A DNA stretch of 64,000 bases from Planctomycetota bacterium (GCA_016213895.1 JACQZJ010000076.1:1291-65290), one strand, 5' to 3'; counted from the first letter of the stretch, positions 19,777-51,595 are shown. Notes: generated by a model from the letters alone, not told the origin. Numbers and translations are program-made.

Positions 19777-19978
19777 GGGGGGCCTCCTCGTCACGGACGG
19801 GTGACGGCCACGCCAGACCAGCGGAGAGGTGCATTCTAGCCCAAGGACAGCGGGGTGCGCCAGCGGCGCAGCGATCACGCGGCCAGCCGCGCAGACCCCG
19901 GCGCGGATGAACCCGGCGTGGGGAGAAGTCCTCACCGCTTGCCCGTTCAACGACCCGCCGGTGCGGACGGCCGCGGCG

Positions 19979-20476
19979 TCAGGTCTCGCCCACCTCCCTG
20001 CACGCGAAGTCGATGAGCCAGTCGGCGATGTAGTAGCCGCTTTCTCGGATGGCCCGGAGCAGGGGCCCGACTGCTGACACGAGCTCGTGCCTGCGGGCTG
20101 AGACCACCGTACCGACCACGCCCCGGACGCGCAGACCATACGCGAGGACCGCCACCCGTCGCGCCCTCAGGTCGTCGATCAGGAGCAGGCTGGCGCCCCG
20201 CCGGGAGGCGAGGGTGATGGCTTCGGCCTCTCCAGCACCGAAATCCTCGGAGAGGAGCGAATCCGGGGGCCGTTCCAGCTGAACGCGCTCGACCCAGTCC
20301 GCGGCCCTCAGCTCCCTCGATCCCGGGAGGCTCTCACCCTGGATGACGGTTTCGCGCCAGACGGCATCGGGAACCAGGAGTCTGCCGTACAACTTCGCAA
20401 GGAGATCCAGTCGCCCAACAACCGCGAGAGCGATGATGGGCCCGGTGTTGGACACGACGGGCCCGCGCTCAGTCAT
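19979..20476 (-). CDS. DUF3368/COG2405-type PIN-like nucleic-acid-binding protein (putative toxin)
   Basis: The sequence MTERGPVVSNTGPIIALAVVGRLDLLAKLYGRLLVPDAVWRE matches the characteristic N-terminus of the DUF3368 family (PIN-like). At 165 aa it is paired with the upstream UPF0175 gene. Confidence 0.65.
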   Translation of the reverse strand: MTERGPVVSNTGPIIALAVVGRLDLLAKLYGRLLVPDAVWRETVIQGESLPGSRELRAADWVERVQLERPPDSLLSEDFGAGEAEAITLASRRGASLLLIDDLRARRVAVLAYGLRVRGVVGTVVSARRHELVSAVGPLLRAIRESGYYIADWLIDFACREVGET

Positions 20477-22620: not shown

Positions 22621-25600
22621 CTAGCGCGCGACCGGCTCCTTGTACTCGGGGCGCGGCCGCGGCGGGTCGCGCTCGAGCGCGGCCAGAGCCAGCTCCACCG
22701 CCTTCTCGAGCTGCGGATCGCGGCCGGCGATGACCTCCTTCGGCCACTCGATGACCTCGTAGTCCGGGGCCACGCCGATGTTCTCGACCGCCCACTCGCC
22801 GTTCTCGTCCATCACGCCGAAGTTCGCCGCGGTGACGAACCCGCCGTCCATGAGCGCGGGGTAGCCGGAGATGCCGACCAGGCCGCCCCAGGTGCGCGTG
22901 CCCACGAGCGGTCCGACGCCCTCCTTCTGGAAGGCCCACGGCATCCAGTCGCCGCCCGAGCCCGCCGACTCGTTGATGATCATGACCTTCGGCCCTTCGA
23001 TCGTGCCGAAGGGGGTCTGGCCGACCCACCTCTCGCGGTTCATCCAGTAGGAGATCACGTTGCGCGAGAGGATGTCGATCACGTAGTCCGCGGCCTGGCC
23101 GCCGCCGTTGTAGCGCTCGTCCAGGATCACGCCCTGCTTGCCGAGCTGGCTGAAGAAGTCGCGGTCGAAGGCGGCCATGCCGCCGCCCGCCGTATCCGGC
23201 ATGTAGATGTAGGCCAGCCGTCCGCCGGACAGCTCGCTCACGCGCTGGCGGTTCGACTCGATCCAGGAAAGGTGGCGCAGGCCGAACTCGTCCCCGATCG
23301 GCACCACCGTCATGGTGCGCGCGTCGTTGCCGTCGGGCTTCGAGGCGAGCGTGATTTCCACCTGCCGGCCCGCGGTGTTCTCGAAGGCGCGGAAGATGTT
23401 CTCGTCCGCCATGACCGGCCGGCCGTTCACGGTGATCAAGTAGTCGCCGGCGCGTGCGTCCACGCCCGGGCCGGTCAAGGGCGCGCGCAGCCCGGGGTTC
23501 CAGTTCTGCCCGCGGTAGATCCGGGTGATGCGGTAGCGCTGCCGGTCGACCTCGTAGTCGCAGCCGAGCAGGCCGACGGAGACGCCGCCCGGCGGGCCCG
23601 GCATCTCGCCGCCGCCGCAGTACTCGTGGCCGCAGCACAGCTCGCCGATCATCTCGGAGACGAGCACGTTCAGGTCGGCGCGGTGCTTGACGTGCGGTAG
23701 GAAGGCGGACCAGCGCCGCCATATCGCCGGCCAGTCGACGTGGTGCATGTTCGGGTCGTAGAAGTAGTCGCGCTCGATGCGCCACGCCTCGCGCAGGATC
23801 TGCGGCCACTCCTCGGCCGGCTCGACGCGCACCGTCACCCCGCCGATGTTCAGGCCCTTGGCGTCCTGGCCCGAGGCGTTTCGGATCGACCAGCCGCCCC
23901 CCTCGCTGGTGAGCAGCCACTGGCCGTCCCCGGACACGCGGAAGCCGTTGATCCCGCCAGCCAGCGTGTTGCTCTTGCGCGAGTCGAAGTCGAAGCTCTT
24001 GAGTTCGGGCCCGCCCCCGCGCGGCGCCTGGATGAAGAGCAGCTTGTCCTTGCTGCAGGCCAGGTTGTAGTAGATGCCGGAACCGAGCGGCAGGGCCAGG
24101 ATCCGCTGGTCGAGGCCCTCGAGGTCGATGGAGGGCTTCTCCTCCTTCTTCTCTTCCTCTTTCTTCTCCTCGGGCTTGGGCGCCTCCTCTTTCTTCTCCG
24201 CGGCCGGAGCCTCTCCCTCGGCCTTCTTCTCGCCCTCCTGGGGCGCTTTCTCCTCTGCCGCGGCCGCGCCTTCCCCGCCGTCTTCCTTCTTCTCGTCCTT
24301 CTTGTCCTCCTCCTTCTTGTCCTTGTCGGGCTTGTCCTTCTCGTCCTTCTTCTTCGTTGGCCGCGCCGAAGTCGTCCGTGAGCGAGGTGGTGGTGCGGGT
24401 CGCCAGCTCGTAGAGGGAGATGTGGTCGTAGAGAGTGCGCAGGTTGCGGTTCTCGTAGGCGATCCACTTGGAATCGGGCGACCACACGGCCGTGGGCCGC
24501 ACCACGCCGAGGGAGCCCTGCACGCTGCCGAATTCGGTCAGCACGCCGCTCTCGAGCGTGACTAGGCCCAAGCGGTTCCCCTTGTCCGTGAACAGGATGT
24601 GCTTGCCGTCCGGGCTCCAGACCGGGTCGTAGAAGAAGCCGCCGTCGCCGAGGTCGTAGCTGCGGGCGGGCTTTCGGCCGCGCGCGTCTCCCACCATGAG
24701 CTGGTACTCGCCGCTCGCGTCCGAGAGCCATGCGACCTGCTCGCCGTCCGGCGACCAGACCGGGCTGCGCTCGTGCACCCCGGGCGAGTTGGTGAGGTTG
24801 CGCGGGTCGCCGTGCTCGCGCGGCACGGTGATGATCTCGCCGCGCGCCTCGAAGACCGCGCGCTTGCCGTTCGGCGCCACGTCCGCCGCGCGCACCGCGC
24901 CGCCCACCGCCTGCCAGCGCGGCAGGGCGGCCAGGTCGTCGGCGCGGATCCGGATGGCGAGGCGCTCCGAGGTGCGTCGTTCCGGGTCGTAGAGGTGCAG
25001 CGACCCGGCCTGCTCGAAGACGATCACGCCTCCGCCGGCGCTCATGGAGCGGATGTCGAAATCGGTGAAGTAGGTGAGCTGCTCGGCCTTGCCCGAGCCG
25101 GGCGCGTAGCGCCACAAGTTCATGTGGTCGTCGCGGTCCGAGGCGAAGTAGACCTGGCCGTCGAGCCAGCAGGGGAAGGTGTCGGTAGCGTGCGCGTGGG
25201 GGATCTCCTCGACCTCGTGCGTCGCGGGGTCGTAGATCCAGACGGGCGGGACCGTGCCGCCGCGATGCCGCTTCCAGGTGCGGAAGGCGTCGCGGATGGG
25301 GGTGTAGGCGATGCGCGAGGCGTCCGCGTTGTAGGCCGCGTGGTTGGCCTTGGGGATCTCGAGCATGGCGGGCGTGGAGCCGCCGTCGGTTTCTGCCAGG
25401 AAGAGGCGCGGTGCCGGCGCGCCCGAGGCGCGCATGCTGCGGAACAGCACGCGCTTGCCGTCCGGATGCCAGCCGAGCACGCGGTCCTCCCCAGGGTGCC
25501 AGGTCAGGCGGCGCGGCGCCCCGCCCTCGACCGGCACGACGTAGACGTCGGTGTTGCCTTCGTACTGGCCGGAGAAGGCGATGTGGAGTCCGTCGGGGCT

Positions 25601-37339: not shown

Positions 37340-37849
37340 ATGCTTTCGCGTCGTTCCATGGTGGCGGCCTGCGCCGTGCTGCTCGGCGTCGCAGCCTTCG
37401 GCTTCACCTCGCACGCGGGCCCGGGCTCGACCGCGTGCATCTTCGGCGACACGCACGGCGACTGGCAGACGCCCACGCTCGTGACCCAGGGGTACGCAAA
37501 GGGCCTGCTCTACACGACCAGCGGCACCCTGATGTTCAAGATGGACGCCAAGCTCACGCTCGGGCCGGCGACGTCCGCGACCCAGAAGAGCGGCTACGTC
37601 AAGGGCTACCTCTGGGCCGTGAACAGCCCGACGCCGTCGAGCCAGCCGTACGCCTACGTCCTGGGCAAGTGGGTCGGCGACAGCACCGGCCACGGCAAGT
37701 TCAGCGCGAGCATCTACAAGCTGCCGACGACGACGCCCGTTCCGGCGCCGATCGGCCAGATCAGCGGGGAGTTCTACGATCCGCCGATCTCGACCACTCC
37801 CTATGACCCGGTCGGGAAGTACAAGGGCACGTGGCACATGTGCTTCTGA
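37340..37849 (+). CDS. Small secreted hypothetical protein
   Basis: There is a signal peptide (MLSRRSMVAACAVLLGVAAFGFTSHA). The protein is 169 aa, rich in T/P/Y/G, ends in C-terminal HMCF, and belongs to no recognised family. Confidence 0.5.
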   Translation: MLSRRSMVAACAVLLGVAAFGFTSHAGPGSTACIFGDTHGDWQTPTLVTQGYAKGLLYTTSGTLMFKMDAKLTLGPATSATQKSGYVKGYLWAVNSPTPSSQPYAYVLGKWVGDSTGHGKFSASIYKLPTTTPVPAPIGQISGEFYDPPISTTPYDPVGKYKGTWHMCF

Positions 37850-37928
37850 GGCCGAGGTTCACCCAGCAGGAGGCCGGGCTCCCTCGGGGGACCGGCCTCT
37901 CTTCTTGCATCGACGGCCGGCCGCGGGC

Positions 37929-38666
37929 ATGCTCGGCAGGGTGATCTCCACGGCACGCTCTCGCCCTATCCTGCTTGCGGCCCTGCTTCCAGCGCTGGCC
38001 GCCTGCTCCCTCTTCACTCGGTCGAGCGAGGCGGATCTGAGGAGGGTCGAGAGCTTCGGCGCGGGCAGGGTGGCGGGAGCGGTGGGGAACAAGCTCGTGG
38101 CGCACTTCGCGCCCGGGACGGAGGTCTACTCCTTCGACCACGAGGAGGGGGGGATCACTGTCGCGGTCACCGAGGTCGAGAACGACTACGACCGGCTGCG
38201 CATCGTGGCGCACCTCACCCTGCGGAGCCGCTTCGCGGAGGAGCTGCGCTTCACGCTCGCCGACGTGCGGCTCGACTACCGGGGCGTGGAGTACGGTGCG
38301 CAGGACGCCGCGCTTTGGCGCGAGAAGTCCGGGTTGAAGCCAGGCGTGGAGGAGAGCCGGTCCTGGGCCTTCCCGATCGGCACCTGGGTGGACGCCGGGA
38401 TCTACCAGGTGACGATTCGCGCCTTCCACCGCTCCGTGGACGGGCGCCTCGCGCCCGTCGCTTTCCAGGTCGCCTTCCCGATCAAGGTCCCGGGCGAGAA
38501 GCGTTCGCGGCTGTTCGGATGGGAGCCGGAGGGGGCGGTGAGCGGAGCGGTCGCGGCCGCTTCCCCGGCCTCCGGGGCCGGATCGCGACTCCCGGTGCAT
38601 CGAGCGCGCGACGAACGTCGAGCGGCTCTACGAGGCGTAGGCGAAGCAGGCGGTTCGTCGTGGTGA
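37929..38666 (+). CDS. Hypothetical lipoprotein
   Basis: The start is MLGRVISTARSRPILLAALLPALAACSLF (lipobox LAAC). The upstream part of the ORF is artefact. The C-terminal about 35 codons overlap the conserved 60-bp element, so the true stop is uncertain. Confidence 0.5.
   Translation: MLGRVISTARSRPILLAALLPALAACSLFTRSSEADLRRVESFGAGRVAGAVGNKLVAHFAPGTEVYSFDHEEGGITVAVTEVENDYDRLRIVAHLTLRSRFAEELRFTLADVRLDYRGVEYGAQDAALWREKSGLKPGVEESRSWAFPIGTWVDAGIYQVTIRAFHRSVDGRLAPVAFQVAFPIKVPGEKRSRLFGWEPEGAVSGAVAAASPASGAGSRLPVHRARDERRAALRGVGEAGGSSW
38559..38617. repeat. Copy A of a conserved ~60-bp element (GCTTCCCCGGCCTCCGGGGCCGGATCGCGACTCCCGGTGCATCGAGCGCGCGACGAACG)
   Basis: It aligns base-by-base with copies at 41599-41656 and 51274-51333. 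Confidence 0.8.
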
Positions 38667-38836
38667 AGGTACGCAGGGTGACGTGGTACGTCGTCGCTGC
38701 CGGCTCCTTCGCCGGGGAAGCGCCGCTCCGGTGCAACGTACTTGCGGACGGCGGTCGCGGGCCGGAGCCCGCTCCCGCCCCGGAATGAACGCGCCGCGCA
38801 GGGCGCGCGGCGCCGGAGAGGACGCGCGGGCGCGCC

Positions 38837-40462
38837 TCAGTCCAGTTCCGGGGCAAGGGGGGTGATGTGCGTGCCGTCACTGCTCACGTTCCCGATGAAG
38901 CTGGCGATCGTGCCGCTCTTGGCGAAGTCGATGCGGTTCTTCTTGGCCGTGTTGTCGTTGATCACGGCGTTGGTGCCGTTGTTCTCGATTCCCTCGGCGG
39001 CGTTGTCCGTGGCCGTGTTGTTGGTGAGTGAGTTGCCGTTTCCGGACTGCTCGTCGAAGCCGTCCCGGCCGTTGCCCTTGGCCTCGTTGTCGATCACGTC
39101 CATGCTGTTGCCGGACAGATAGAAGCCGTCGCCGGAGCAGCCCTTGGCCACGTTCTTGGCCAGGTCGTGGCCGTTGCCCTCGATGTGGAACACGTCGCGG
39201 CTCTGGCCGCCGCAGTCCTCCACGATGTTCAGCTTGATGCTGAAGTTCGTGCAGTTGGAGGTGACCTGGATGCCGTGCGATCCAGAGCCCTTCACCCTGT
39301 TGCTCCGCACCACGCCGTTCACCACCGCCACCCCGTCGACACGGATGCCCTCGCTGTTGCCGAACACCTCCTCGCAGACGTTGCCGATGATGCGCGGCAG
39401 CAAGCCCTCGTAGCGGATGGCCTCGTTCGACACTCGGCGGATGCGGTTGTCCTCCACCGTGTTGCCATCGCCGTCAATGTTGATGCCGTAGTTGGCGATG
39501 TCGAGGAGGCTGTTCTCCTCCACCGCGTTCGAGTTCCCGGACATGTAGATTCCGTAGTTCGCTATGGAGCGCAGCTTGTTGTTCCGCACCAGGGTGCCGT
39601 TGCCCGACATGTAGATGCCCCAGTTCGAGTTGTAGGCGATGTCGTTGTCGAGGACCTGGGCGTCGTCTCCCTCGATGTAAACGCCCCAGTTGTCTCCGTA
39701 GCGGAGCACGTTGTTCCTCACCACGGCGTTGTTGCCGTTGACGCAGTAGCACCAGTTGCCGTTGTGGAGCGCCTTGCAGTCCTCGATCAGGCAATCCGCG
39801 CCGATGATCTCGACCGCGTGTCCGTTCACGTAGTCGAAGGAGCACTTGGCCACGCGAGCCGAGTTGCCGGTGATGCGGATGGCGTCGCCCGCGCAGTGCT
39901 TGACCGTGAGCTTCGAGACGAGCGTCACGTCTCCCGTCGCCAGCACGCAGCGGCCGAAGGTGCCCCACGAGGCGCAGTCGGCGATCACGGCGCTGTTCGC
40001 GGTCTCGACGTAGACGTCGGCCGTCTCGTTGGCCGTGAAGTCGCATCCCTTGACCGCGAGCTGGTCCTGCTTGCCGTGGACGCCGTAGCCGCCGAGGCCG
40101 CCGTTGTTCAGGGCGTTCTTGATCGTGAAGCCGTGGATGGTGACCTCGCTGGAGTCGACCAGGATGCCCGGGCCGGCGCCCGCGCCGCCCGCTGGCCGGG
40201 CGTCGATCGTCACCTTGCCCGCCGCCTTGAGCGTGAGTCCGTTCTTCCCGGCCGGGATCGAGACGTTCTCCTGGTACAGGCCCTTCTTGACCAGGACGGT
40301 GTCGTTCGGGCCGGCGAGGTTGACGCCGGACTGGATGGTGGGATGAGGCCCGCCCTTCTTGACGACGATCGTGGCGGCGTGCGCCGAGCCCGCGAGGAGC
40401 AGGATGGCCAGAAGTGCGAAGAGGCGTGCACCGGAGGTGCCGTGGGCCTTGTGATTGAACAT
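38837..40462 (-). CDS. Secreted right-handed parallel beta-helix repeat protein (pectate-lyase/NosD-like fold)
   Basis: There is a signal peptide (LFALLAILLLAGSAHA). Many N/G-rich PbH1-type repeats follow (NNVLRYGDNWGVYIEGDDAQVLDNDIAYNSNWGIYMSGNGTLVRNN...). Confidence 0.8.
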   Translation of the reverse strand: MFNHKAHGTSGARLFALLAILLLAGSAHAATIVVKKGGPHPTIQSGVNLAGPNDTVLVKKGLYQENVSIPAGKNGLTLKAAGKVTIDARPAGGAGAGPGILVDSSEVTIHGFTIKNALNNGGLGGYGVHGKQDQLAVKGCDFTANETADVYVETANSAVIADCASWGTFGRCVLATGDVTLVSKLTVKHCAGDAIRITGNSARVAKCSFDYVNGHAVEIIGADCLIEDCKALHNGNWCYCVNGNNAVVRNNVLRYGDNWGVYIEGDDAQVLDNDIAYNSNWGIYMSGNGTLVRNNKLRSIANYGIYMSGNSNAVEENSLLDIANYGINIDGDGNTVEDNRIRRVSNEAIRYEGLLPRIIGNVCEEVFGNSEGIRVDGVAVVNGVVRSNRVKGSGSHGIQVTSNCTNFSIKLNIVEDCGGQSRDVFHIEGNGHDLAKNVAKGCSGDGFYLSGNSMDVIDNEAKGNGRDGFDEQSGNGNSLTNNTATDNAAEGIENNGTNAVINDNTAKKNRIDFAKSGTIASFIGNVSSDGTHITPLAPELD

Positions 40463-40534
40463 GGTCCTGTTCTCCTGTGCCGGCCGTACTTCGCCATTCT
40501 AGCGAAAGGGCTTGGCCTCGCGGCAGGACACTGG

Positions 40535-41438
40535 TCAGGGTGCGGGCGCGGCGAGAAAGACCAGGGGTTCTCCCGGGAGGATGGGGTCCGCGCGCCTGGC
40601 GGGCAGAATGAGCACGGCGTCCGCTTCCAGCGTGACGCGCCGGCCGTCCGGGTAGGCGCCGAGCGCCGTGCCGCGCGCCGCGGGCTGGAGGTTCCGCTCC
40701 ATGCCCTCGAACCAGCGGAAGCCTCCGGCCTCGCACAAGAGCACGTCCCGGACCTCGAGCCTCTCCTTCCTGCCGCGCGTGCGGAAGGCCCGCCCCAGGA
40801 TCATGCCGAGCCCGGCCATGAGGTTGATCATCTCGTCGCGGGCGAAGCGCAGCAGGTCCCTGGGCTCCTCGAGGCAGCCCAGCTCGTAGCGCACGCCCAC
40901 GCCGCCGCAGGCGAAGAGGACGCGGTCGAGAGGGGCGCCCGCGGCGCAGGGCAGCGGGTCGGAGATGAGCACGCGGGCCGCGAGCAGGTTCGTGACCTCG
41001 ATGTGGCGCGGGCAGGCGAGGGGCGCCTGCTGCACGAGGAAGCCGCGGCCGGGCGCGGCGCCTGCGTGGAAGTCGACCAGGATCTCGATCTCCGCTTCGG
41101 CCAGGAGGCGCACGATCTCCCGCGCGCGCCGTTCCTCGTAGGCTCCGGGCGGCCGCGCCAAGGCGGCCGGGTGGAAGCAGCGGTCCAGATCGACGCCGTC
41201 CTTCGACCAGGGCAGGTCCTGGGCGAGGGCGCGCGGGTTGGAGGCGAGCAGGAGCACTTTCCCCTCGGACAGTCCGAGCTCGTCCGTGGCGAACATGGCC
41301 AGGAGCTGCTGGATGGCATCGACCGGCGCGGGCTCGTCTCCGCGCACGCCGCCGGCGATGCACAGGCTCGGCCCGCTCGACCCCGAGTCGATCAGGCACA
41401 CGCCGCTGTCTCGGATCCGCTCGACCATAGGACCGGGA
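40535..41438 (-). CDS. Succinylglutamate desuccinylase/aspartoacylase (AstE/AspA) family protein
   Basis: The start is MVERIRDSGVCLIDSGSSGPSLCIAGGVRGDEP. HAGAAPG and VLLCEAGGFRWFEGME fit the M14-like deacylase family. The upstream 70 codons of the track ORF are probably not translated. Confidence 0.65.
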
Positions 41439-41598
41439 ACCGTCTGCAGGTTGCACCGCAGGATAGAGAGCGACTTCGCTTGGGGGAACCGAGACGAGCG
41501 AAGGCGATGGGCGTTGGAAGGACGCGAAGAGGGAGAGGAGGAGCTCGCGGCTGTCTGCCCGGATCCGGAGGGGAGCGCGGTGAGAGGAGCGTCGCAGC

Positions 41599-41656
41599 CG
41601 CTTTCCCGGTTCCGGGGCCGGGTGCGCGCCTTCCGGTGCATGGTGTGCGCGACGAA
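41599..41656. repeat. Copy B of the conserved ~60-bp element, in the divergent region between the AstE-like and GT2-fusion genes
   Basis: The sequence is GCTTTCCCGGTTCCGGGGCCGGGTGCGCGCCTTCCGGTGCATGGTGTGCGCGACGAATG. Confidence 0.8.
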
Positions 41657-41796
41657 TGATGCCTGGCCTGCTGGCGGCGGAGGCGACGCGGGCGGCTCGG
41701 CGCGGACGTGCCGCCGAAGCCGCGGGCGAAGGGCCCGCGCCTGCCAACCATGAACGCGCCGAAGACGGCGCGGGGCATCGGCTAGGATCGGCCGGG

Positions 41797-44412
41797 ATGA
41801 GGCCCTGCGTCATTGTTCCGGCCTACGAGAACGAGCGCACCGTCGCCGCGGTGGCGCGCGGCGCCGCGGCGCTGGGGCTTCCGGTCATCGTCGTGGACGA
41901 CGGGTCGCGCGATCGCACGGCCGAGGCCGCGCGGGAGATCGACGGCGTGACCGTGCTGCGCCACGAGCGGAACCAGGGGAAGGGCGCGGCCCTGCGGAGC
42001 GGGTTCTTGGCGGCCGCGGAGCGGGGATTCACGCACGCGCTGACCATCGACGCGGACGGCCAGCACCTGCCCGAGGACATTCCGCGTTTGCTGGAAGCCG
42101 CGCGCGCGGAGCCCGCGGCGCTCATCCTCGGCGCGCGCGACCTGGCCGCGGCCGGGGCCGGGCGCGGCTCGCGCTTCGGCCGCGCCTTCTCGAACTTCTG
42201 GACCCTGGTCGAGACCGGGCTCCGGCTCGAGGACACGCAGAGCGGATTCCGCCTCTATCCCCTCGGGGCGCTCGCGGCGTTGCGCCTCGAGGCCAGCGGC
42301 TACGACTTCGAGATCGAGGCGCTGGTCAAGGCCGCCTGGAGCGGCGTGCCCGTGCGCTCCGTCCCGGTGCGCGCGCGCTACTTCCAGGGAGCGGAGCGCG
42401 TGTCGCACTTCCGGCCGTTCCTGGACTTCGCCCGCATCAGCCGCCTGAACACGCGCCTGGTGACGCTGCGCATCTGTCTGCCGCGAGCCTGCCTGGCAGC
42501 CCTGTTCCGGCGCGATCTGGCCCATCTCTCCTGGCCGCGGCGTCTGTGGCGAGGCCTCGCGCTCGCCCGCGGCCGCGCGCGGCGCAGGGTCCCTCTGCCG
42601 TTCCTGCTGCTTCCGGCCGGAACCGGCCTCGTGCTCGCGGCCGCGGCGCTGCAGGGCGCGGCGCGGGTCGTCTCGTTCGCGGGCGCGCTCGGGCTCCTCG
42701 CCGGCGCCGCCGCCATCCTGGCGTTTCTCTTCCGGCGCGCCGAGCTCTTCCTGGCGGCCTTCCTGCCGGCCGCGGTCGGACTGCTGCTGGCGCTCGGTGT
42801 CGCGGGCTTCCTGGGCGGCGTTTCTCCAGGTCCGGCCGCGGGCGCCGCGCTTGCCGCGGCACTCGCGCTCGAGGCGGCCGCCCTGCTCCTCGCCTATCTG
42901 CGCCGCTTCCGCGGGCAGAAGGACCGCGTCGCCCTGGTCGCCTGGAGCGTGCCCGTCACGGCCGCGCTCGCCGCCCTCGCCTGGCGCGCCGGCCTGGGAC
43001 CGCCGTGGCCGCAAGGCTGGCCGGCCCTGGTCGCGGGAACGTGCGGCGTGCTGCTCCTCTCGCCCTTCTGCTGCCGCGCCGTGCTGGTGCGCGCCGGGCC
43101 AAACGGCACGCCCGCGCCCGCGAACATGCTCGCGGCCCTGCGCGTGTTCTGGCTGATGCTCGCCGGTGGCGCGCGGCACTTCCTGGCGCGCGCGCCGGGC
43201 GCGAACCGGCGAGCGGCGCAGCGCGCCGCGGTCGATCGCATCCAGGCCATCGCCCGCGCCATCCAGCAGGGCGTGCCGCTCGGCCGGCGCGTCTTCCTCG
43301 GTCTGGAGCGCATCCCGCGCGGCCAGCCCTGCGTCGTGGTCGCGAACCACGAGTCCATGTACGACATCATGGCAGCTCTCGCCCTGCCGCTGCCCCTTCG
43401 CATCCTCGCCAAGAGGTGGGTGTGGAGGATGCCCGTGCTCGGGGCCATGGTGCGCGCCGCCGGCTACATCCTGGTCGAGGAGGATCGCACGGAGGCCCTG
43501 TTCGAACAGGCGGCCCGTTCGCTCGCGGAAGGCGTCTCGCTTCTCGTCTTTCCCGAGGGGACGCGCAGCCGCAGCGGCAGGATGGGCCGCTTCCACAACG
43601 GCGCCTTCGCCATCGCGCGGCGCTGCGGCGTGCCCGTGCTGCCGGTGGCCATGGTGAACACGCGCGAGACGGTTCCGCCGGGCACCTGGTGGGTGGGGGA
43701 GCACGACGCGCGCATCGTCGTGCTCGAGGCCATGGACCCGGGCGCCTTCAGCGGCGAGGGCGCCGACCGCAGGATGGCTCGCGCGGCGCGCGAGCGCATC
43801 GCCGCGTGCTGCCGCGACCTCTGGCTCGAGACCCAGTACGGGCCGGTCTGGCATCGCATCCTCTCCGGCATGTACCGCTGCCGGGGACTGCGCGCGAACG
43901 CGGCCGCGCGCGGGATCCGGAGCGATCCGTTCCTTCACGCCCTGCCGCGCCTCTGCGCGGGGAACGGGCGCGTCCTCATCCTCGGCTGCGGCTTCGGTCT
44001 CAGCGCCGCGCGCCTGGCGCTCGCCTATCCGGCGCGCGAGATCATCGCGGTCGGGCCGCCCGGCCGCGCGCTGCGCGCCGCGCGCGCCGCCCTGGGGGAC
44101 CGCTTCCCCGTCGCCTTCGTCGCGGCGGATCCAGCCGCGTGCGAGGCGCCGCCGGCGCAGTGGACCATCCTCGACGTCCTGGCTCTGCGCCAGGAGGCGT
44201 TTCCCGCGCTCTTGCGGCGCGTGGCCGGGGTCGCGGCGCCGGGCGCGCGCCTGCTGCTGCGCGGCCGGCAGGGCGACTGCGAGCGAGCGCTCGCGGAATG
44301 CGGCTTCGCCGTGGACGAGGAGCGCGGCGACCTCTGCCGGGCCGGAGAGGTCGTGCTCCTCTGCACCCCGCGGGCGTTCAGCCCGTCTGGCGGAACGTCG
44401 CGGTGCGGTTGA
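41797..44412 (+). CDS. Tri-domain fusion: GT2 glycosyltransferase + polytopic membrane region + lysophospholipid-acyltransferase (PlsC-type HX4D) + class I SAM methyltransferase
   Basis: The start is MRPCVIVPAYENERT. The GT2 region has the motifs VVDDGSRDRT...TIDADGQH. The membrane region has Ala/Leu-rich TM runs. The acyltransferase region has VVANHESMYD (HX4D) and FPEGTRS. The C-terminal region has VLILGCGFG (GxGxG SAM motif). Confidence 0.8.
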   Translation: MRPCVIVPAYENERTVAAVARGAAALGLPVIVVDDGSRDRTAEAAREIDGVTVLRHERNQGKGAALRSGFLAAAERGFTHALTIDADGQHLPEDIPRLLEAARAEPAALILGARDLAAAGAGRGSRFGRAFSNFWTLVETGLRLEDTQSGFRLYPLGALAALRLEASGYDFEIEALVKAAWSGVPVRSVPVRARYFQGAERVSHFRPFLDFARISRLNTRLVTLRICLPRACLAALFRRDLAHLSWPRRLWRGLALARGRARRRVPLPFLLLPAGTGLVLAAAALQGAARVVSFAGALGLLAGAAAILAFLFRRAELFLAAFLPAAVGLLLALGVAGFLGGVSPGPAAGAALAAALALEAAALLLAYLRRFRGQKDRVALVAWSVPVTAALAALAWRAGLGPPWPQGWPALVAGTCGVLLLSPFCCRAVLVRAGPNGTPAPANMLAALRVFWLMLAGGARHFLARAPGANRRAAQRAAVDRIQAIARAIQQGVPLGRRVFLGLERIPRGQPCVVVANHESMYDIMAALALPLPLRILAKRWVWRMPVLGAMVRAAGYILVEEDRTEALFEQAARSLAEGVSLLVFPEGTRSRSGRMGRFHNGAFAIARRCGVPVLPVAMVNTRETVPPGTWWVGEHDARIVVLEAMDPGAFSGEGADRRMARAARERIAACCRDLWLETQYGPVWHRILSGMYRCRGLRANAAARGIRSDPFLHALPRLCAGNGRVLILGCGFGLSAARLALAYPAREIIAVGPPGRALRAARAALGDRFPVAFVAADPAACEAPPAQWTILDVLALRQEAFPALLRRVAGVAAPGARLLLRGRQGDCERALAECGFAVDEERGDLCRAGEVVLLCTPRAFSPSGGTSRCG

Positions 44413-46638
44413 CGAGGAAGACCTTCTTCTCGGTCTTGCCCGTATCCGGCCAGGTGACGCTGATGCGTACCTTGCCGCGGTAGTCGCCCAGGCCGAAGTG
44501 CAGCGTGTAGCCGTCCTGGGAGGTCGTGCCGCGCCCGCCGTTCTGCTCGCGCACCAAGGAGAACGCCGCCTCGCCCTCGGCGGGCTCCGCCACCACGCGC
44601 GCCCCCACGCCGAAGCGGTTCCTCTTGCGACCCACCAGGTTCACCTTGACCCAGTGGTTGGCGTTGCCGCGATTGCGGAAGAGCTTCATGCCCGAGCCGG
44701 AGCCGATCACCAGGTCGAGGTCGCCGTCGTCGTCGTAGTCGAACCACGCCTGCCCCCAGCCGTTGAAGGCGATCGCGCGGCCGCGGCAGGTGATGGGCTG
44801 GAAGCGGCCCGCGCCGTCGTTCTGGTACAGGCAGGAGGGCACGCCCTCGTAGGTGCACGTCACCGAGAGGTCGAGGTCGCCGTCGTTGTCGAGGTCGGCG
44901 AAGGCCGGATCGGAGTGCGTCTCCTGGAAGCGGATGCCGCGCGCGCGCCGTTCCTCCGAGAAGGCGAAACCCTGCGCCGCGCCGCCGTTGAGATAGAGCA
45001 TGGACAGGTTCGAGAAGCCCTGCACGATGAAGCGCGGGTGGGCGAGGTTGGCGCAGAACAGGTCGAAGTCGCCGTCGTTGTCGATGTCCCCCCAGACCGA
45101 GCCGATGGTGTGGCCGTAGTACTGGTGTTCGCGCCGGTCGGCCTCGCCCTGCAGGCCGATCTCGGCAGCTAGGTCGATGAACTTGCCCTTGCCGTCGTTC
45201 CGGAACAGGAAGTTCGGGTTGAGCCGGTAGTTCGAGACGTACACGTCCTGGTCGCCGTCCGCGTCGAAGTCGCAGGCGGCCACGCCGCGCCCGCAGCGCG
45301 CGGCCACGGCCAGGATGCCCGCGTCCTGGGAAACGTCGCGGAAGGTGCCGTCGCGGTTGTTCCGGACCAACAGGTCCGGGTGCCCCACGGCCATGGGCTC
45401 TTCGTACACGGCCAGGTAGAAGTCGAGGAAGCCGTCGCCGTCCAGGTCGAGCCAGGCCGCCCCCTCGGGCTGCGCCTCGACCTTGAGCGCCGCGAGCCCG
45501 GCCTGGTCGGTGACGTCGCGGAACGCGTACTTCTCCTTCTTGCCGCCGTTTTGCAGCAGGAAGGGGTGGGGCGCCGCGGGAAGGAGCAGGTCGAGGTCGC
45601 CGTCGTTGTCGTAGTCGCCGAACAGGGCCGAACCGCCGCGCGCCTTGATCCCGGCCTGCTCGGTGACGTCCAGGAACGAGCGCCCGCCCTCGTTCCGCAG
45701 GAGCACGCCCGAGCAGCACAGGTCGGGATCGCCGTCTTCGTCATAGTCGGCGGCCGCGACGCGCCCGTGCCGCATCCCTTCGAGGCCGGCTTCCTTCGTG
45801 ACGTCGTCGAAGACCGCTCCCGGCTCCGCCTCGCGCGCCGTGAGCGGGTTCTCGGCCGCGTCCAGGCAGCCGCTGAGCGAGCAGGCCAGCACCAGGTTGT
45901 TGAAGGCGCCGTCGCAGTCGACGTCGCACCTCTCGCGCTTCTCCAGGTCGCCGGCGCCGGATGCGTCCGCGCCCGCGTAGCTCTGCGCGCGCGCCGCCTC
46001 GTCCCAGGCCAGGGCGAAGGCGCGGCGCGCGAGGTCGAGCGTCTTCTCGCCGCCGCTGCCGGCGCGCACGTGCGCCTGGCAGTAGAGCGTGAGGAGCGCG
46101 CGCTCTGCCGCCGGGCTGCCCTTGGCCCGCTCCAGCCACTGGTCGAAGCAGCCGGCGAAGCGCTCCGCGGCCGCCGCGTCGCCGCTTTTCAGCGCGGCCA
46201 TGAGCAGGCGCGACGCTGGAGTGCTGGAGTAGGGGCTGTCCGGGAAGGCGGCAAACAGCGCGCCCCAGCACTTCTCGTTGAACGCGGGATCGAAGTTGGC
46301 CCAGCAGTGCATGTAGATGGCGTCCACGACCTCGGCCAGGGGCGAGCCGAACGCGCCGAGGGAGTCCTGCGCGTGGAAGCCGCCCTGCTCCAGGGCCTGC
46401 AGCTCCTTGACGCTCTCGTCGAACTTCATCTGGCCGGCGAGGGCCACGGCGAGGAAGGCGCGCGCGGCCAGGTCCTCGGCGTCCGCGGCCAGGCGCTCGG
46501 CGCACAGCTTCTCCAGCTCGGCGAAGCTCGAGCCCTCCTTGAGCGCGGAGGCGCGCTGGAAGAAGTCCGCGTCGCTCTGCCGCGGCGCCGCCAGGAGGAG
46601 CGTCAAGAGCCAGTGCGCGGCGAGCCAGTGAGCAGGCA
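44378..46638 (-). CDS. Secreted CRTAC1-family protein: N-terminal TPR-like region, FG-GAP/VCBS repeats, C-terminal ASPIC/UnbV domain
   Basis: The start is MPAHWLAAHWLLTLLLAAP (signal peptide), with AGGAGGAA upstream. DxDGDGxxD repeats recur (DYDEDGDPDL, DYDNDGDLDL, DLDGDGFLDF, DFDADGDQDV, DIDNDGDFDL, DLDNDGDLDL, DYDDDGDLDL). The C-terminal HWVKVNLVGRKRNRFGVGARV...GGRGTTSQDGYTLHFGLGD is the UnbV_ASPIC signature. Confidence 0.75.
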
Positions 46639-46685
46639 TGGGTTCCTCCTGCGCGGGAAGCGGCCGCTCGAGAGCATAGCGACCG

Positions 46686-49600
46686 TCAGCCCGCCTGTTC
46701 GGCGCCGGCCGGCGCCCGCGGCGCCGTGAAGCGTCCCGTGGCAAGCCAGCGCAGGCAGTTCTTCAGGTCCTCGAAGATGAGGTAGAAGGTCGGCAGGATG
46801 ACGAGCGTGATGACCGTGGCGAACAGCAGGCCGAAGACGAGCGACACCGCCATGGGAATGAGGAACTGCGCCTGGAAGCTCTGCTCGAGCATGAGCGGGA
46901 AGAGGCCGGCGACGGTGGTGACCGTGGTGAGGATGATGGGGCGCAGGCGGATGCGCGCGCTCTCGACCACCGCCTCGAACAGGGGCGCGCCCTGCGCGCG
47001 GTCGTGGTTGACGCGGTGCACCAGGATGAGGCTGTCGTTGACCACGATCCCGGCCAGGCCCACGGCGCCGATCATCGACAGCAGGGTGAAGGGGTAGCCG
47101 GTGAGGTAGTGGCCGAGGACCGCCCCGACGAGCGAGAAGGGGATCACGGCCATGACGATGAGCGGCTGGGTGTAGGAGCGGAAGAGCACGGCGATCAGGG
47201 CGTAGATCCCGAGCAGCGCCGCCGGGAAGCCGATGGCCAGCGAGCCGAGCGCCTCGCGCCGTTCCTTCTCCAGGCCCTCGAAGCTGACCGACACGCCGGG
47301 GAACTCCTGGCCGATGCCGGCGAGCCGCTCGCTGAGGTCGGCCGTGATCTCCTCGACGTTGGCGCGCGCCTTGTCGACCTGGGCGGTCACGGTCACCGCC
47401 CGCTTGCCGTCCGCGCGCTGCAGCATGGCGTAGCCGCGCGCCGTGCTCAGGACCGCGACTTCGTCGAGCGGCACGCGGCCTCCGCCGTCAGTCGCGATCC
47501 TCAGCCGTCCCAGGTCCGCCAGGTCGCGCCGCGCCGCCTCCGGCAGGAGGACGCGCACCTTGACCTCGTCCTCCTTCTCCTGCAGCTCCTGAGCCTCGAA
47601 GCCGAACACCGCGTTTCTGAGCTGCGCGGCCAGTCCCTGCGTGGTCAGGCCGAGGGAGCGCGCGCCGTCCTGCAGCCGGAAGCGCGCCTCGAGCTTCCCT
47701 TCGCGCAGGTCCTTCTCCACCTCGCTCACCCCGCCGTAACCGGCGAGCAGCTCGCGCACGCGGTCGGCCGCGCGCGACGCCTGCTCCAGGTCCTCGCTGC
47801 GCACGCGCGCCTCGATGTCCGCCCCGCGCTGGCCGCCGCTTTCCGCGCGGAAGGCAAGACGATCGACGCCGCTGATGGCAGCGCTGCGCGCGCGCATCTC
47901 CTCGATGATGCGTGCCGAGCTGCGCAGGCCGCGCAGCTCGCGCTCCTCGCCCGTGAGCAGCTCGATGCGCAGCTGGCCGATCGTGGCGGGATCGGCCACG
48001 TTCTCCTGCCCGCGGTCGTTGAAGGACGCGCCGGCCACGGAGTAGACGCTCGCCACCTCCGCGTACTCCTGGACCATGCGCTCCAGATCGGCGATCACCT
48101 CGACGGTGCGCTCCTCCGGCGTGCCGGCCGCCATCTCCAGGTTGACGGTGACCGCCTCGGCGTCGATGTCCTGGATCAGCACGAACGGCACGATGCCGCC
48201 GGCCACGAGCCCGAGGATGGCGAAGAACACGCCCAAGGAGGAGGCCGCGACCGGGTAGCGCCAGCGCAGGATGAAGCGCACCAGCCGCTCGAAGCTGTTC
48301 TTGAGCCTGCGGTCGAGCAGCTCGTCCCGCGCCGCGGCCACGCGCGCGGCCAAGGCGCGCGTGCGGAACAGGAATCTCCGCGGCAGGCGGCGCGGGTGCC
48401 CGAGGTGGCTCGGCAGGATGAGGAACGCCTCGACCAGCGAGACGCTGAGCGCCGCGATCACGACCACCGGGATCACGCCGAGGAAGTCGCCCCAGATCCC
48501 GCGGATGAAGGCGAGCGGCAGGAAGGCGATGATCGTGGTCAAGACCGCTGCCAGGACCGGCATCGCGACCTCGTTCGCGCCCTGGACCGCCGCCTCCGCG
48601 GGCGGCATGCCCTCGTCGATCTTGGCGTGGATGTTCTCCCCGATGACGATGGCGTCGTCGACGAGCATGCCGAGCACGATGATCAGGGCGAAGAGCGAGA
48701 GCAGGTTGATGGTCGTGCCCCAGAGCGCCATCACCGTGAACGCCCCGAGCAGGGCGACCGGCATGCCCAGGGCGACCCAGAAGGAGGTGCGCACGCTGAG
48801 GAAGAGGGCCAGGGAGATGATGATCAGGATCAAGCCGGAGCGCGCGTTCCTGAGCATCAGGTCGAGGCGCTGCCCGATGAAGCGCGACAGGTCGTTCGTC
48901 ACGCGGAGCGTGGCGGCGCCGCCAAGCAGCTCGCCGTGCGCCGCGACGTACGCCTTCACCTTGGCGGCGATGTCGAGCGCGTCCTGCTCGGGCGTCTTGA
49001 ACACGACGAGCGAGACCGCCGGCTTGCCGCCGAAGCGGCTCTGCATGACGCGGTCCTCGAAGGTGTCGCGCAGGCGCGCGACGTCCGCGAGGCGCAAGGC
49101 CGTGCCGTCCGGCCGCGCCTCGACCACGAGCTCCTCGAGCTCCGCCGCGCGCCGCGCCTCGCCCATGGTGCGGATGCGGACGTTGCCGGTGGCGCTTTTC
49201 AGCTGCCCGCCCGGAGCGTCCAGGTTCCCCGCCGCCAGCGCGCGCCCGACCTGGTCGAAGGTCAGGCCGTGCTCCTCGAGCTTCTCGGGCAGGACCTCGG
49301 CCCAGATCTCCGGGCGGCGCACGCCCAGCACGTACACCTCGGACACGCCCTCCAGGTCGAGAAGGTCGTCGCGCGCGTCGAACGCGGCCTGGCGCAGGCG
49401 CTCCTCGGGCACGTCGCCCGTGACCACGATGGAGATGACCGGCACGTAGGGCCGCACCTCCACGATCTCCGGGTCCTCGGCCGACTCGGGGAACTCGGGC
49501 TTGACCTGGTCGATCTCGCTGCGGATCGAGTTGAGCACGCGCTCGCGGTCGGCGTCGTCCTCCATGGTCACGACCACGGCGGTCAGACCCTCGAGCACCG

Positions 49601-49847
49601 AGGAGCGGATCTCCTTGATGCCGTCGATGTCGCGGATCTCGCGCTCGATGCGCAGGGTGATGGCGCGCTCCACGTCCTCGGGCGTGGCGCCGGGGAAGGG
49701 CACGATGATGGAGATCTGCTCGGCGTCCAGCGCCGGGAAGAACTCGCGCACCAGCGTGAACCAGAAGTAGAGCCCGCTGGCGATGATCCCCGCCATCAGC
49801 AGGTTGACGGCCACGGGGTTGTCGACCGAGAAGCGCGGGAGGTTCAC
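46686..49847 (-). CDS. RND-family efflux transporter (AcrB/CzcA-like inner membrane pump)
   Basis: VNLPRFSVDNPVAVNLLMAGII is the typical RND N-terminus (GTG start). The length (about 1050 aa) and the 12-TM plus two periplasmic loop layout fit the family. The GTG overlaps the MFP stop (GTGA). Confidence 0.9.
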   Translation of the reverse strand: MNLPRFSVDNPVAVNLLMAGIIASGLYFWFTLVREFFPALDAEQISIIVPFPGATPEDVERAITLRIEREIRDIDGIKEIRSSVLEGLTAVVVTMEDDADRERVLNSIRSEIDQVKPEFPESAEDPEIVEVRPYVPVISIVVTGDVPEERLRQAAFDARDDLLDLEGVSEVYVLGVRRPEIWAEVLPEKLEEHGLTFDQVGRALAAGNLDAPGGQLKSATGNVRIRTMGEARRAAELEELVVEARPDGTALRLADVARLRDTFEDRVMQSRFGGKPAVSLVVFKTPEQDALDIAAKVKAYVAAHGELLGGAATLRVTNDLSRFIGQRLDLMLRNARSGLILIIISLALFLSVRTSFWVALGMPVALLGAFTVMALWGTTINLLSLFALIIVLGMLVDDAIVIGENIHAKIDEGMPPAEAAVQGANEVAMPVLAAVLTTIIAFLPLAFIRGIWGDFLGVIPVVVIAALSVSLVEAFLILPSHLGHPRRLPRRFLFRTRALAARVAAARDELLDRRLKNSFERLVRFILRWRYPVAASSLGVFFAILGLVAGGIVPFVLIQDIDAEAVTVNLEMAAGTPEERTVEVIADLERMVQEYAEVASVYSVAGASFNDRGQENVADPATIGQLRIELLTGEERELRGLRSSARIIEEMRARSAAISGVDRLAFRAESGGQRGADIEARVRSEDLEQASRAADRVRELLAGYGGVSEVEKDLREGKLEARFRLQDGARSLGLTTQGLAAQLRNAVFGFEAQELQEKEDEVKVRVLLPEAARRDLADLGRLRIATDGGGRVPLDEVAVLSTARGYAMLQRADGKRAVTVTAQVDKARANVEEITADLSERLAGIGQEFPGVSVSFEGLEKERREALGSLAIGFPAALLGIYALIAVLFRSYTQPLIVMAVIPFSLVGAVLGHYLTGYPFTLLSMIGAVGLAGIVVNDSLILVHRVNHDRAQGAPLFEAVVESARIRLRPIILTTVTTVAGLFPLMLEQSFQAQFLIPMAVSLVFGLLFATVITLVILPTFYLIFEDLKNCLRWLATGRFTAPRAPAGAEQAG

Positions 49848-51190
49848 CGCGCGCTCCCGGCCTGCTCGGCGGACTCGATGGCCTGGACGGCCGCGGGCTC
49901 CACGCCCGCCGCGCTCTCCGCGACGCGGATCAGCGAGCCGCCGGCGATCCTCTCGAGGTTGGTGACGATGACCTCGTCGCCTTCCTCCAGCCCCGCGTCG
50001 ACCAGGGCGACGCTGGGCAGCAGGCGCAGCACGTGCGGCTGCCTCGGCGTCGCGATCGCCTCGCCCGCGTCCTTCCCCGCCTCGCGCTCCGCCACGTAGA
50101 CCTGCTCGCCGACGAAGGCGATGCGCGGGATGGCGGCCACTCCCTCGAAGCGCCTGCCGTCGATGGTCGCCACCACGAACGCGCCGGGCGCCAGCGCGGA
50201 CGGCTGCTCCGCGCCGGAAACCACCAGGAAGGCGTTGAAGGTGCGATTCACGGCGTCCACGTCCGGGGAGACGCGGGCCACCTGGCCGCGCCACGCCACC
50301 TCCCCGCCCTCGCTCAGGCGGATGAGCGCGGCGCTTCCGGCCTCGACCTCGCCGAAGCGCGCGGCCGGGAGCGCGACCGGCACCTCGATGCGCGAGAGAT
50401 CGATGATCTCGAAGAGCACGGCTCCCTGCGCCACGCGCGCGCCCGGCTCGGCGAAGCGCGCGCTGATGCGCCCGGCGTAGGGCGCGCGCACCACGGCGCG
50501 CTCCAGGTCGAGCTCCGCCTGCGCGAGCGCGGCCTCGGCGCGCGCCACGTCCGCCTCGTCGCTCATTCGGCGCGCGGACGAGCCCGCGGCCTCGGCCTCG
50601 AGCTGCAGGACCTGGCGCTCGAGCAGCAGCGTGGCGCGGCGCTGCTGGTCCAGCTCCTGGCGCGAGACCGTGTCGTCGCCGGCGAGCAGCTCGCTGCGCT
50701 CCAGCTCCTGGCGCGAGGTCTCGTGCTCGCGCCGCGCCACCGCGAGGCGCTTCTCCGTGCCAGCGCTCTCGATCAGCGTGCGCGCCAGGCGCGCGCGCCC
50801 CCCCTCGACCTCGGCGCGCGCGCGCGCCGCGGCGTTCTCCAGGTCGCGGGCATCGATCTGCACCAGCTCGGCGCCTTGCAGCACGGCGGCGCCCGCCTCC
50901 AGGTCGGCGGAAACCCAGGCCACGACGCCCGCCACCTCGGCCGCGACCTGGGCCCGGCGCAGCGCCGCCGCCTTGCCGTAGCCGGTCAGCGGCTCGACGA
51001 AGGGGCCGAAGGAGACGCGCGCCACGCGCACCGCGGGCCGGCGCAACGCGCCGGTGCTGCGCTCCGGGGGCTTGCGGCTCGCGGCCAGCTCGGAGAGAGT
51101 CCAGGCGCCGGCGGCGAGGAACATCGCCGCCAGTCCGATCGAGACCAAGATCCGCCACCTCAGGGCGGCTGGCGCGCGCGTAGAGGGCAT
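49844..51190 (-). CDS. RND efflux membrane-fusion (periplasmic adaptor, HlyD-like) protein
   Basis: The start is MPSTRAPAALRWRILVSIGLAAMFLAAGAWTL (TM anchor). Coiled-coil and lipoyl/beta-barrel-like segments follow (VVRAPYAGRISARFAEPGARV...). The upstream part of the 1348-aa track ORF is artefact. Confidence 0.8.
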   Translation of the reverse strand: MPSTRAPAALRWRILVSIGLAAMFLAAGAWTLSELAASRKPPERSTGALRRPAVRVARVSFGPFVEPLTGYGKAAALRRAQVAAEVAGVVAWVSADLEAGAAVLQGAELVQIDARDLENAAARARAEVEGGRARLARTLIESAGTEKRLAVARREHETSRQELERSELLAGDDTVSRQELDQQRRATLLLERQVLQLEAEAAGSSARRMSDEADVARAEAALAQAELDLERAVVRAPYAGRISARFAEPGARVAQGAVLFEIIDLSRIEVPVALPAARFGEVEAGSAALIRLSEGGEVAWRGQVARVSPDVDAVNRTFNAFLVVSGAEQPSALAPGAFVVATIDGRRFEGVAAIPRIAFVGEQVYVAEREAGKDAGEAIATPRQPHVLRLLPSVALVDAGLEEGDEVIVTNLERIAGGSLIRVAESAAGVEPAAVQAIESAEQAGSAR

Positions 51191-51273
51191 CCGCCGACTG
51201 TACCGCGCCGCGCGGGGCTTCGCAGCTTCTTGGTTGGGAACCGGAGGGGTTGGTCCGTGGAGCGATCGCGGGC

Positions 51274-51333
51274 GCTTCCCTGGTTCCCGGGGACGGATGC
51301 ACGCCTTCCGGTGCATCGTGCGCGCGACGATCG
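51274..51333. promoter_or_regulatory. Copy C of the conserved ~60-bp element; contains a perfect 7-bp inverted repeat GATGCAC-N8-GTGCATC (51296-51317); candidate operator in the divergent MFP-RND / ECF-sigma promoter region
   Basis: The sequence is GCTTCCCTGGTTCCCGGGGACGGATGCACGCCTTCCGGTGCATCGTGCGCGCGACGATCG. The palindrome was read directly from the sequence. Confidence 0.6.
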
Positions 51334-51458
51334 TCGTGTGGCTTTTCGAGGCGGAGGCGATGCTGGCGATCCAGAGTCGTGAAGGTGCGCCGGGTGCAGT
51401 GTGTTCGGCGCGCGCTCCGTGGGCTTGCAGTGCGCGGCCGGCTAGGAGACAATCCAAG

Positions 51459-51545
51459 GAATGGCGGCGAGGAGACTCGCCACCAGTCCGATCGAGACCA
51501 GGTTCCGCCACTTCAGGGCGGCTGGCGCTGACGCGGAGGGCCCGA
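51459..51545. repeat. Degenerate direct duplicate (~85% identity) of the 5' coding end of the MFP gene (51095-51190) located in the intergenic region
   Basis: Compare gcggcgaggaacatcgccgccagtccgatcgagaccaagatccgccacctcagggcggctggcgc with gcggcgaggagactcgccaccagtccgatcgagaccaggttccgccacttcagggcggctggcgc. The start codon is lost in the copy. Confidence 0.8.
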
Positions 51546-51595
51546 CCGTGCCGCGGCGCGCGCCGGCCCGCGAGAGTGCGAAGGCCCAGCGCACC

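Follow-up and report, generated by a model that had tools for sequence, protein, structure and literature searches.

Copies of a hairpin-forming interspersed repeat lie in a 64,000-nt stretch of DNA from a Planctomycetota bacterium (GCA_016213895.1, JACQZJ010000076.1:1291-65290; G+C 71%), which we refer to throughout, at its full length, as the window. The original prediction described a conserved element of about 60 bp present three times, once at the 3' end of a lipoprotein open reading frame (ORF; copy A) and twice in spacers between divergent genes (copies B and C), and these gene contexts are correct. Of the positions given for the three stretches, 38559 (A) and 51274 (C) hold, and the second begins at 41600 rather than 41599, each being the site at which the GCTTCC of the repeat starts. 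The similarity is real and beyond chance, but its length had been understated, as the copies align across 165-230 nt (A, B and C are homologous over ~180 columns of a three-way MAFFT alignment), and a fourth copy (D) had been overlooked.

An nhmmer profile built from copies A, B and C was run on the window and on the contigs of a related metagenome-assembled genome (MAG), and places copy A at 38501-38699 (E = 1.4e-53), copy B at 41541-41740 (E = 1.2e-43), copy C at 51219-51419 (E = 4.1e-56) and the partial copy D on the minus strand at 6678->6597 (E = 2.3e-05). Measured by coverage with other family members, the repeated DNA extends over 38504-38825, 41538-41705 and ~51214-51396. The sole complete unit in the window is copy A (38501-38825, plus strand; delimited by nhmmer, family coverage and the frame plot), which comprises a leader (38501-38540), a hairpin that we term E (38541-38733) and a shortened trailer (38734-38825). 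It spans the whole spacer between two convergent genes, to 12 nt from the stop codon (38837) of a gene for a beta-helix protein; on the other side an ORF with a lipobox (37803-38666) runs into it and ends at a TGA 163 nt from the element start, although the coding signal of this ORF, judged by codon-position GC, already fades at ~38520.

The other three copies are incomplete. Copy B (41541-41705, plus strand; core at 41633-41655) lies inside the 368-bp spacer of the divergent AstE-like (true start ~41428) and GT2/acyltransferase (~41797) genes and consists of the leader and the 5' ~two-thirds of E; it ends at profile column ~170, without the 3' arm, and thus cannot form the rod-like hairpin of the complete unit. 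Copy C (51214-51400, plus strand; core at 51308-51330), located between an MFP gene (ATG 51190, minus strand) and an ECF sigma gene (ATG 51596), has the leader and an E that is cut after profile column ~183, again without the 3' arm, which its MAG orthologue retains. In copy D (6582-6678, minus strand), the leader (6678->6631) is followed by a collapsed E hairpin (6630->6582; GGAGC-AT-CGCGGC-C-GTTTCCCCGG GAT CCGGGGAAAC-GCCGC-TC-GCTCC), in which a 3-nt loop joins the outer stems and the ~140-nt interior, including the core, is gone between two CCGGGG motifs. The MAG orthologue of copy D (contigs L023/L024) has the full E, and copy D is a deletion derivative of a full copy.

Single-nucleotide indels between the aligned copies break any reading frame and, together with the codon-position GC profiles, indicate that the element is non-coding. 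A coding role, either from a minus-strand ATG within GGTGCAT or from a plus-strand GTG after GGAGG, was rejected on these frame-breaking indels and because coding stops before the element. Two minus-strand ORFs (37761-38600 and 40535-41641) have called starts at an ATG complementary to the conserved GGTGCAT of the element, and these starts are artefacts; the AstE-like gene read from ~41428 encodes 297 amino acids, in agreement with the Logan gene call.

The repeat is not confined to the window. A search of one genome per species with a 23-nt core pattern (CCGGTGCATNGNGNGCGCGACGA) found it on 17 contigs of a single MAG (DYIW01, GCA_020723465.1, labelled Phycisphaera mikurensis at NCBI), with the remaining matches scattered as expected by chance, and nhmmer recovered 25 copies on those 17 contigs, pairs of which are spaced 311-505 bp apart in head-to-tail arrays. 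The window and this MAG together hold at least 29 copies of the family. DYIW01 comes from a relative of the window organism, with flanking genes that are ~80-91% identical: synteny holds between window 38.8-54 kb and contigs L015 and L034 (identity ~78-91%), and between window 2.7-12.4 kb and contigs L023 and L024. The window organism itself is present in the sequencing run SRR12113406, as Logan contig L037 from that run is exactly window 38763-41648, ends within copies A and B and encodes a beta-helix protein that is 100% identical; an exact-protein look-up of the kinase gene of the window returned no record. Across the 4 window loci and 25 MAG copies, the repeat is extragenic or clips only the last codons of genes. 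Subfamilies exist, and A, B and C belong to three different ones, each nearer to MAG copies than to one another.

Outside this lineage the searches returned nothing beyond chance. Rfam 15 gave no match anywhere in the window at gathering score, and relaxing the threshold to E <= 10 for copy A, copy C and a MAG array produced sub-threshold chance matches only; a metagenome scan with the 23-nt core yielded 6 chance matches, a scan of viral contigs with the same core yielded 0, and blastn of copy A against plasmids found nothing. The family is thus lineage-specific and uncatalogued as an RNA family. No description of it was found in Rfam or in the literature searched, and it is probably a previously undescribed member of a well-known class of palindromic repeats.

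Alignment of extended copies shows the unit to be a mosaic of a leader of ~40-55 nt, the ~190-nt interrupted hairpin E and a trailer of up to ~165 nt. The leader has the consensus ...GGGGCK TCGCGGCTG.TTGG.TGGGA.CCGGAGGG..GTGAGC. The trailer carries, in order, a module M3, a hairpin Ha that resembles a REP (repetitive extragenic palindromic) sequence (GGCGGTCGCGGGC-CGGA-GCCCGCTCCCGCC, then CCGGAATG) and a second hairpin Hb (CACCGCGCG-AAGA-CGCGCGGTG in the MAG arrays); in some copies a module M4 replaces the 3' arm of E. In copy A, Ha lies at 38750-38787 (plus strand) and recurs after E in MAG copies, and an Hb-like hairpin (GCGCCGCGC-AGG-GCGCGCGGCGC) follows at 38791-38813 (plus strand), 24 nt before the stop codon of the beta-helix gene. 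At the D locus, the remainder of the mosaic (6270-6581, minus strand) comprises M3 (6581->6509), a truncated Ha, a duplicated 65-nt module and a complete Ha with GGAATG (~6286-6325). The 65-nt unit is tandemly doubled at 6361-6490 (minus strand; 97% identity), bears two hairpins and GTCGGATC, and is also found after truncated E copies at the MAG loci L016, L026, L015 and L012. The block first noticed as a 60-mer corresponds to the left arm of E and the near-invariant interior core, and is the best-conserved part of the unit (~0.9 column identity); at its centre, on the 5' strand of the hairpin interior, lies the core CCGGTGCATCGAGCGCGCGACGA (38592-38614 in copy A, plus strand). With a size of ~190-420 nt and no coding capacity, the unit falls within the small (<600 bp), non-coding range of miniature inverted-repeat transposable elements (MITEs). 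Ha is preceded by GTAG in ~4/14 copies and by GAAG, GACG or GTCG in the remainder, and the arms of E are untagged, so that neither E nor Ha has the GTAG/CGTC tag of the REP system as a conserved feature.

E folds into a long, interrupted hairpin. In copy A, a rod-like hairpin extends over 38543-38730 (plus strand) with a minimum free energy (MFE) of -110.8 kcal/mol (z = -2.55), and its outer stems pair CGGAGCGG with CCGCTCCG, CGCTTCCCCGGC with GCCGGGGAAGCG, GGGGCCGG with CCGGCTCC and GCGAC with GTCGC. Throughout the family, the 5' part of E (GGAGCG-ATC-GCRGC-C-GYTTCCCYGG...GGGRNCGG...GCGAC) pairs with the distal part (GTCGC...CC-GNYCCC...CCRGGGAARC-GCYGC-TC-CGCTCC). In an alignment of 16 complete E copies (A2), RNAalifold and all single-sequence MFE folds gave identical closing helices in 16/16 copies. 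The two arms are complementary and co-vary, yet the hairpin is ~190 nt long, its arms are interrupted and its interior is asymmetric. Standard pairs occupy 96.3% of the cells of the named structure, a share that falls to 39-54% on displacing the 3' partners by 1-3 columns, and at 11 pairs both sides have changed; 0/500 shuffles match the observed pairing, double changes or covariation score. The compensatory states include G-C/A-U at column pairs 14/190 and 37/170 and three different states at each of 38/169 and 49/159, and because they occur in at least 7 different combinations they do not reflect a single inherited event. The outer ~30 bp of the hairpin are maintained by many compensatory changes. 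Within the long-range helices, G.T pairs outnumber A.C pairs by 17 to 3, which indicates that the given strand folds best; copy A folds at -110.8 kcal/mol on the plus strand and at -98.1 kcal/mol on the minus strand.

Orientation follows the neighbouring genes. At the 17 MAG loci and the 4 window loci, the repeat is flanked by housekeeping or envelope genes that have no relation to one another (including Ppx/GppA, spermidine synthase, a histidine kinase, GGT, FtsW, Mfd, an aminoacyl-tRNA synthetase and a beta-CASP nuclease). Ten loci adjoin the 3' end of a real, co-oriented gene, the orientation being sense in 10/10, and at these loci the stop codon either precedes the element by 5-22 nt or falls 35-163 nt within it. 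The sole antisense adjacency to a 3' end is the far side of copy A, between convergent genes, and the loci that do not adjoin a gene 3' end occupy promoter spacers, either divergent or tandem. Copy D lies on the strand opposite to that of A-C, and the cumulative GC skew shows no switch across the window; orientation therefore tracks the neighbouring gene and not the direction of replication. No sigma-70-like promoter was predicted in 36-54 kb, and terminator-like sites there occur at chance level, with none inside the element.

The family turns over rapidly. MAG contig L034, orthologous to window 38.8-51 kb, has no element at the sites of copies A and B, and C and D are common to both genomes; the two genomes differ in presence or absence of copies, in internal deletion between short direct repeats and in array length. 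Two copies on contig L004 are tandem units that are 99% identical, and copy B is 92% identical to the non-orthologous MAG copy L010, against 91% for the orthologous pair C/L015a. At the copy C locus the MAG has ~490 nt more (3' arm, trailer and a second E), and the junction between L015 2581-3085 and window 51396-51406 shares a GGTG microhomology, suggesting from the sequence comparison that these ~490 nt were deleted in the window lineage. Copy C is also bracketed by a direct duplication of ~155 nt, which is the only flank duplication found at copies A-D and four MAG loci: the left copy, X (51059-51214), is the present 5' end of the MFP gene, and the right copy, X' (51412-51563), 81-82% identical, is a decayed MFP pseudo-5'-end with an in-frame TAG. 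X' lies directly upstream of the ECF sigma start at 51596, and X acquired the ATG at 51190 through a 4-nt difference. As the MAG orthologue L015 is laid out in the same way, the duplication predates the split of the two lineages, and it is far too long for a target duplication of transposition.

Together, these observations lead us to propose, as the probable reading, that the family is a non-autonomous, non-coding, lineage-specific, hairpin-forming interspersed repeat of the REPIN/ERIC/BIME class and not a regulator site. A dispersed repeat had already been favoured over a typical operator in the original prediction, and the at least 25 further copies that adjoin unrelated genes in the related MAG bear out that preference. 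The repeat can be envisioned as a mobile or recombining palindromic element that would be copied as DNA, through either an enzyme whose gene lies elsewhere or recombination together with tandem duplication, with the folded strand being what the copying machinery or selection would see. The copies at gene ends are probably co-transcribed with their genes, as they are always sense-oriented. A complete copy such as A would then place a very stable hairpin at the 3' end of an mRNA, where it may act as a barrier to 3' exonucleases or as a terminator without a U-tract, as REP/BIME elements do; such a role of complete copies is plausible. As the sense bias and the wobble asymmetry suggest, complete copies may be tolerated, or selected for, as parts of mRNAs. 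Copies B and C would be decayed 5' fragments in divergent promoter regions, for which no specific regulatory role would be expected.

Several observations weigh against this proposal. No transposase was detected in a Pfam scan of ~60 ORFs covering the 64-kb window and ~110 kb of MAG loci, nor a RAYT in the same sequence; no parent insertion sequence (IS) was found in the window and MAG-locus sequence, and viral contigs and plasmids gave no matches. Short target-site duplications are missing at A, B, D and four MAG loci. Family conservation extends beyond the inverted arms, by 40-55 nt on the left and by up to ~165 nt on the right, and these arms are therefore no terminal inverted repeats. With no transposase, target-site duplication or defined termini, membership of the MITEs or of the REP-RAYT system cannot be claimed. 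Comparison of A and B with the MAG gave no exact insertion boundaries, the spacers being too diverged or synteny ending; for copy B, a clean empty site could not be aligned because the orthologous spacer is too diverged. No T-run follows E or the trailer hairpins, and the hairpin is thus not a canonical intrinsic terminator. Both strands of copy A fold about equally relative to shuffled sequences (z = -2.55 and -2.69), so that the strand bias is carried by the wobble counts and the orientation only. Interior helices modelled on copy A are just 70-78% paired family-wide, and a conserved interior fold is accordingly not claimed. Finally, the family is carried by two genomes only, one of them a fragmented MAG.

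Among known systems, REPINs offer a close parallel, with compensatory hairpin changes and tandem arrays that include flanking sequence having been described for them (PMC3116915). The repeat shares with REPINs an extragenic, multi-copy distribution with subfamilies, complementary arms that yield a long hairpin in single-stranded DNA or RNA, frequent compensatory changes, tandem arrays of near-identical units with their flanks, and fast turnover between related strains with decayed singlets common. It differs in size, E (~190 nt) being about twice a REPIN (~70-110 nt), and in build: whereas a REPIN is composed of two short (20-40 bp) inverted REPs, the arms of E are interrupted and not short tagged REPs, and the best-conserved segment lies in a large, asymmetric interior. 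Moreover, no RAYT was found beside E in the window and at the MAG loci, and the phylum differs. REP clusters, and REPs that reach into the ends of ORFs, have been described across phyla, the PVC group included (PMC3733652), and the BIME/GTAG-CGTC clusters (Di Nocera et al. 2013, PMC3733652) are likewise mosaics of intergenic hairpin modules (here E, Ha, Hb, M3 and M4) that lie between unidirectional or convergent genes and sometimes extend into ORF ends. The 12-13-bp stem and 4-5-nt loop of Ha are in the REP range. In contrast to these clusters, the modules of the E unit are much longer, GTAG precedes Ha in a minority of copies, and E is not a REP.

The ERIC/IRU, YPAL and Neisseria Correia (NEMIS) elements are imperfect palindromes of 100-170 bp in transcribed intergenic DNA, for which a role in mRNA stability has been proposed, as it is here for complete E copies; they possess defined terminal inverted repeats as well as TA target duplications, and insert in either orientation. 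E resembles them in its whole-unit rod-like fold and in presumed co-transcription with its neighbours, but has no defined termini or target-site duplication, is biased to the sense orientation at gene 3' ends, shares no sequence similarity with them and resides in a planctomycete. Intrinsic terminators have a GC-rich stem of 7-20 bp and, in high-GC bacteria, include forms without a U-tract. E is likewise a GC-rich hairpin that lies 0-22 nt from, or overlaps, the stop codon of a co-oriented gene; it is, however, a ~190-nt branched or interrupted rod with no T-run, and occurs in promoter regions as well. Integron attC sites were rejected on general comparison (no RYYYAAC/GTTRRRY ends and no cassettes), as were retron non-coding RNAs, 6S RNA and group II intron domains (the element is multi-copy, with no associated gene and no Rfam match).

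The best-surviving alternative, which we regard as unlikely but worth retaining, is that E is primarily a functional structured RNA (that is, a cis-acting mRNA module in 3' UTRs (untranslated regions) and 5' leaders, or a multi-copy small RNA), in which an RNase or RNA-binding protein would recognize the rod together with an invariant segment of 23-45 nt, and its nature as a repeat would be secondary. Such a function would accord with the strong covariation of the outer helices, the 17-to-3 preponderance of G.U-type pairs on the given strand, the T-to-C changes of interior partners that turn G.U into G-C opposite the invariant core (pairs 69/123 and 71/121), the ~0.9 identity of the 5' half and the sense orientation of all 10 copies at gene 3' ends; the reversed strand of copy D without a GC-skew switch also points to a constraint linked to transcription rather than replication. 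However, covariation and tandem arrays of this kind have also been documented in selfish REPINs, and of the four copies in the window only A is able to form the full rod (B and C have one arm, and D has lost the interior and core). The neighbouring genes are unrelated, the family turns over quickly between relatives, and neither a promoter or terminator signal nor an Rfam match was found; the sense bias itself could arise because the sense strand supplies stop codons to the ORFs that are clipped. A more specific form of this idea, somewhat less likely still, is that E is an orientation-constrained RNA domain that a Phycisphaera-like lineage puts at mRNA 3' ends and 5' leaders, its co-varying ~30-bp stem offering the invariant CCGGTGCAT..GCGCGACGA to a dedicated RNA-binding protein or nuclease. 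If true, E would be a lineage-specific signal for post-transcriptional control or processing, or an RNA that guides its own copying.

We consider it improbable that E is instead an end module, as RNA or DNA, of a non-autonomous element derived from the IS200/IS605 or IS110 type, in which case it would be a PATE-like element with a scaffold akin to a guide RNA or bridge RNA, moved in trans by a single-copy enzyme encoded elsewhere in the genome. The strand-specific fold, the subterminal hairpins, the lack of a target-site duplication, a structured size (~190 nt) within the general range of such RNAs and the GTAG-like tag on one trailer hairpin in a minority of copies would all fit such a derivative. 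Yet no TnpA, TnpB, IscB or IS110 gene lies in the 64 kb or within ~4 kb of the 17 MAG loci, Rfam gave no match even at E <= 10, the left end has no conserved target motif, and copy D is reversed without a skew switch.

The notion that the conserved block is a promoter or operator module, through which a dimeric regulator would co-control the neighbouring divergent operons, is essentially excluded. It had drawn on the location of copies in divergent promoter regions (B and C, to which D can be added) and on a GATGCAC-N8-GTGCATC palindrome in copy C, which is indeed perfect (51296-51317, plus strand; 7-bp arms and an 8-nt spacer). The palindrome is private to copy C and its orthologue L015a, being found neither in A and B nor in 20 other family members. 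In L015a, the A that sets GATGCAC apart has as its partner a compensatory T of the distal arm (column pair 46/162), an A-U pair that occurs only there, so that the dyad appears to be an incidental by-product of the large hairpin and not a family trait. Against a promoter module, ten loci, or about half, adjoin the 3' ends of genes, the neighbouring genes have no common function, the similarity covers ~190-400 nt and promoter-like hexamers are missing. A passive origin by local segmental duplication or gene conversion within the 45-kb region, for which the 155-nt duplication around copy C and the clear tandem duplication at L004 might speak, has almost no remaining likelihood, being refuted by 25 copies with unrelated flanks on 17 other contigs and by the subfamilies in which A, B and C are each nearer to MAG copies.

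Two other repeats were noticed in the window: a 21-nt (7-codon) tandem repeat of ~16 units at 19288-19623, within a TPR-containing ORF (17935-20166, minus strand), has no relationship to the repeat family, and a pyrimidine-rich, low-complexity repeat of the TCCTCCTTCTTCTC type at 24140-24343, within a tricorn/S41 peptidase ORF (22621-24537, minus strand), is likely to code for a linker rich in Lys and Glu.

Recognition of the repeat accounts for several features of these genomes. It explains short-read assembly breaks in this lineage, contig L037 ending as expected for a high-copy repeat, and it explains spurious ORF starts and extended C termini, given that several genes end at a stop codon supplied by the element. 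It also rules out that the AstE/GT2 and MFP-RND/ECF-sigma promoter regions have a regulator in common, which removes a false lead. The family adds a large, well-structured group of palindromic repeats to the Planctomycetota, in which REP-like elements have barely been described, and its unusually clean covariation, combined with 3'-end copies that are all in the sense orientation, offers a usable system in which to ask whether mobility as single-stranded DNA or an effect on mRNA maintains such hairpins.

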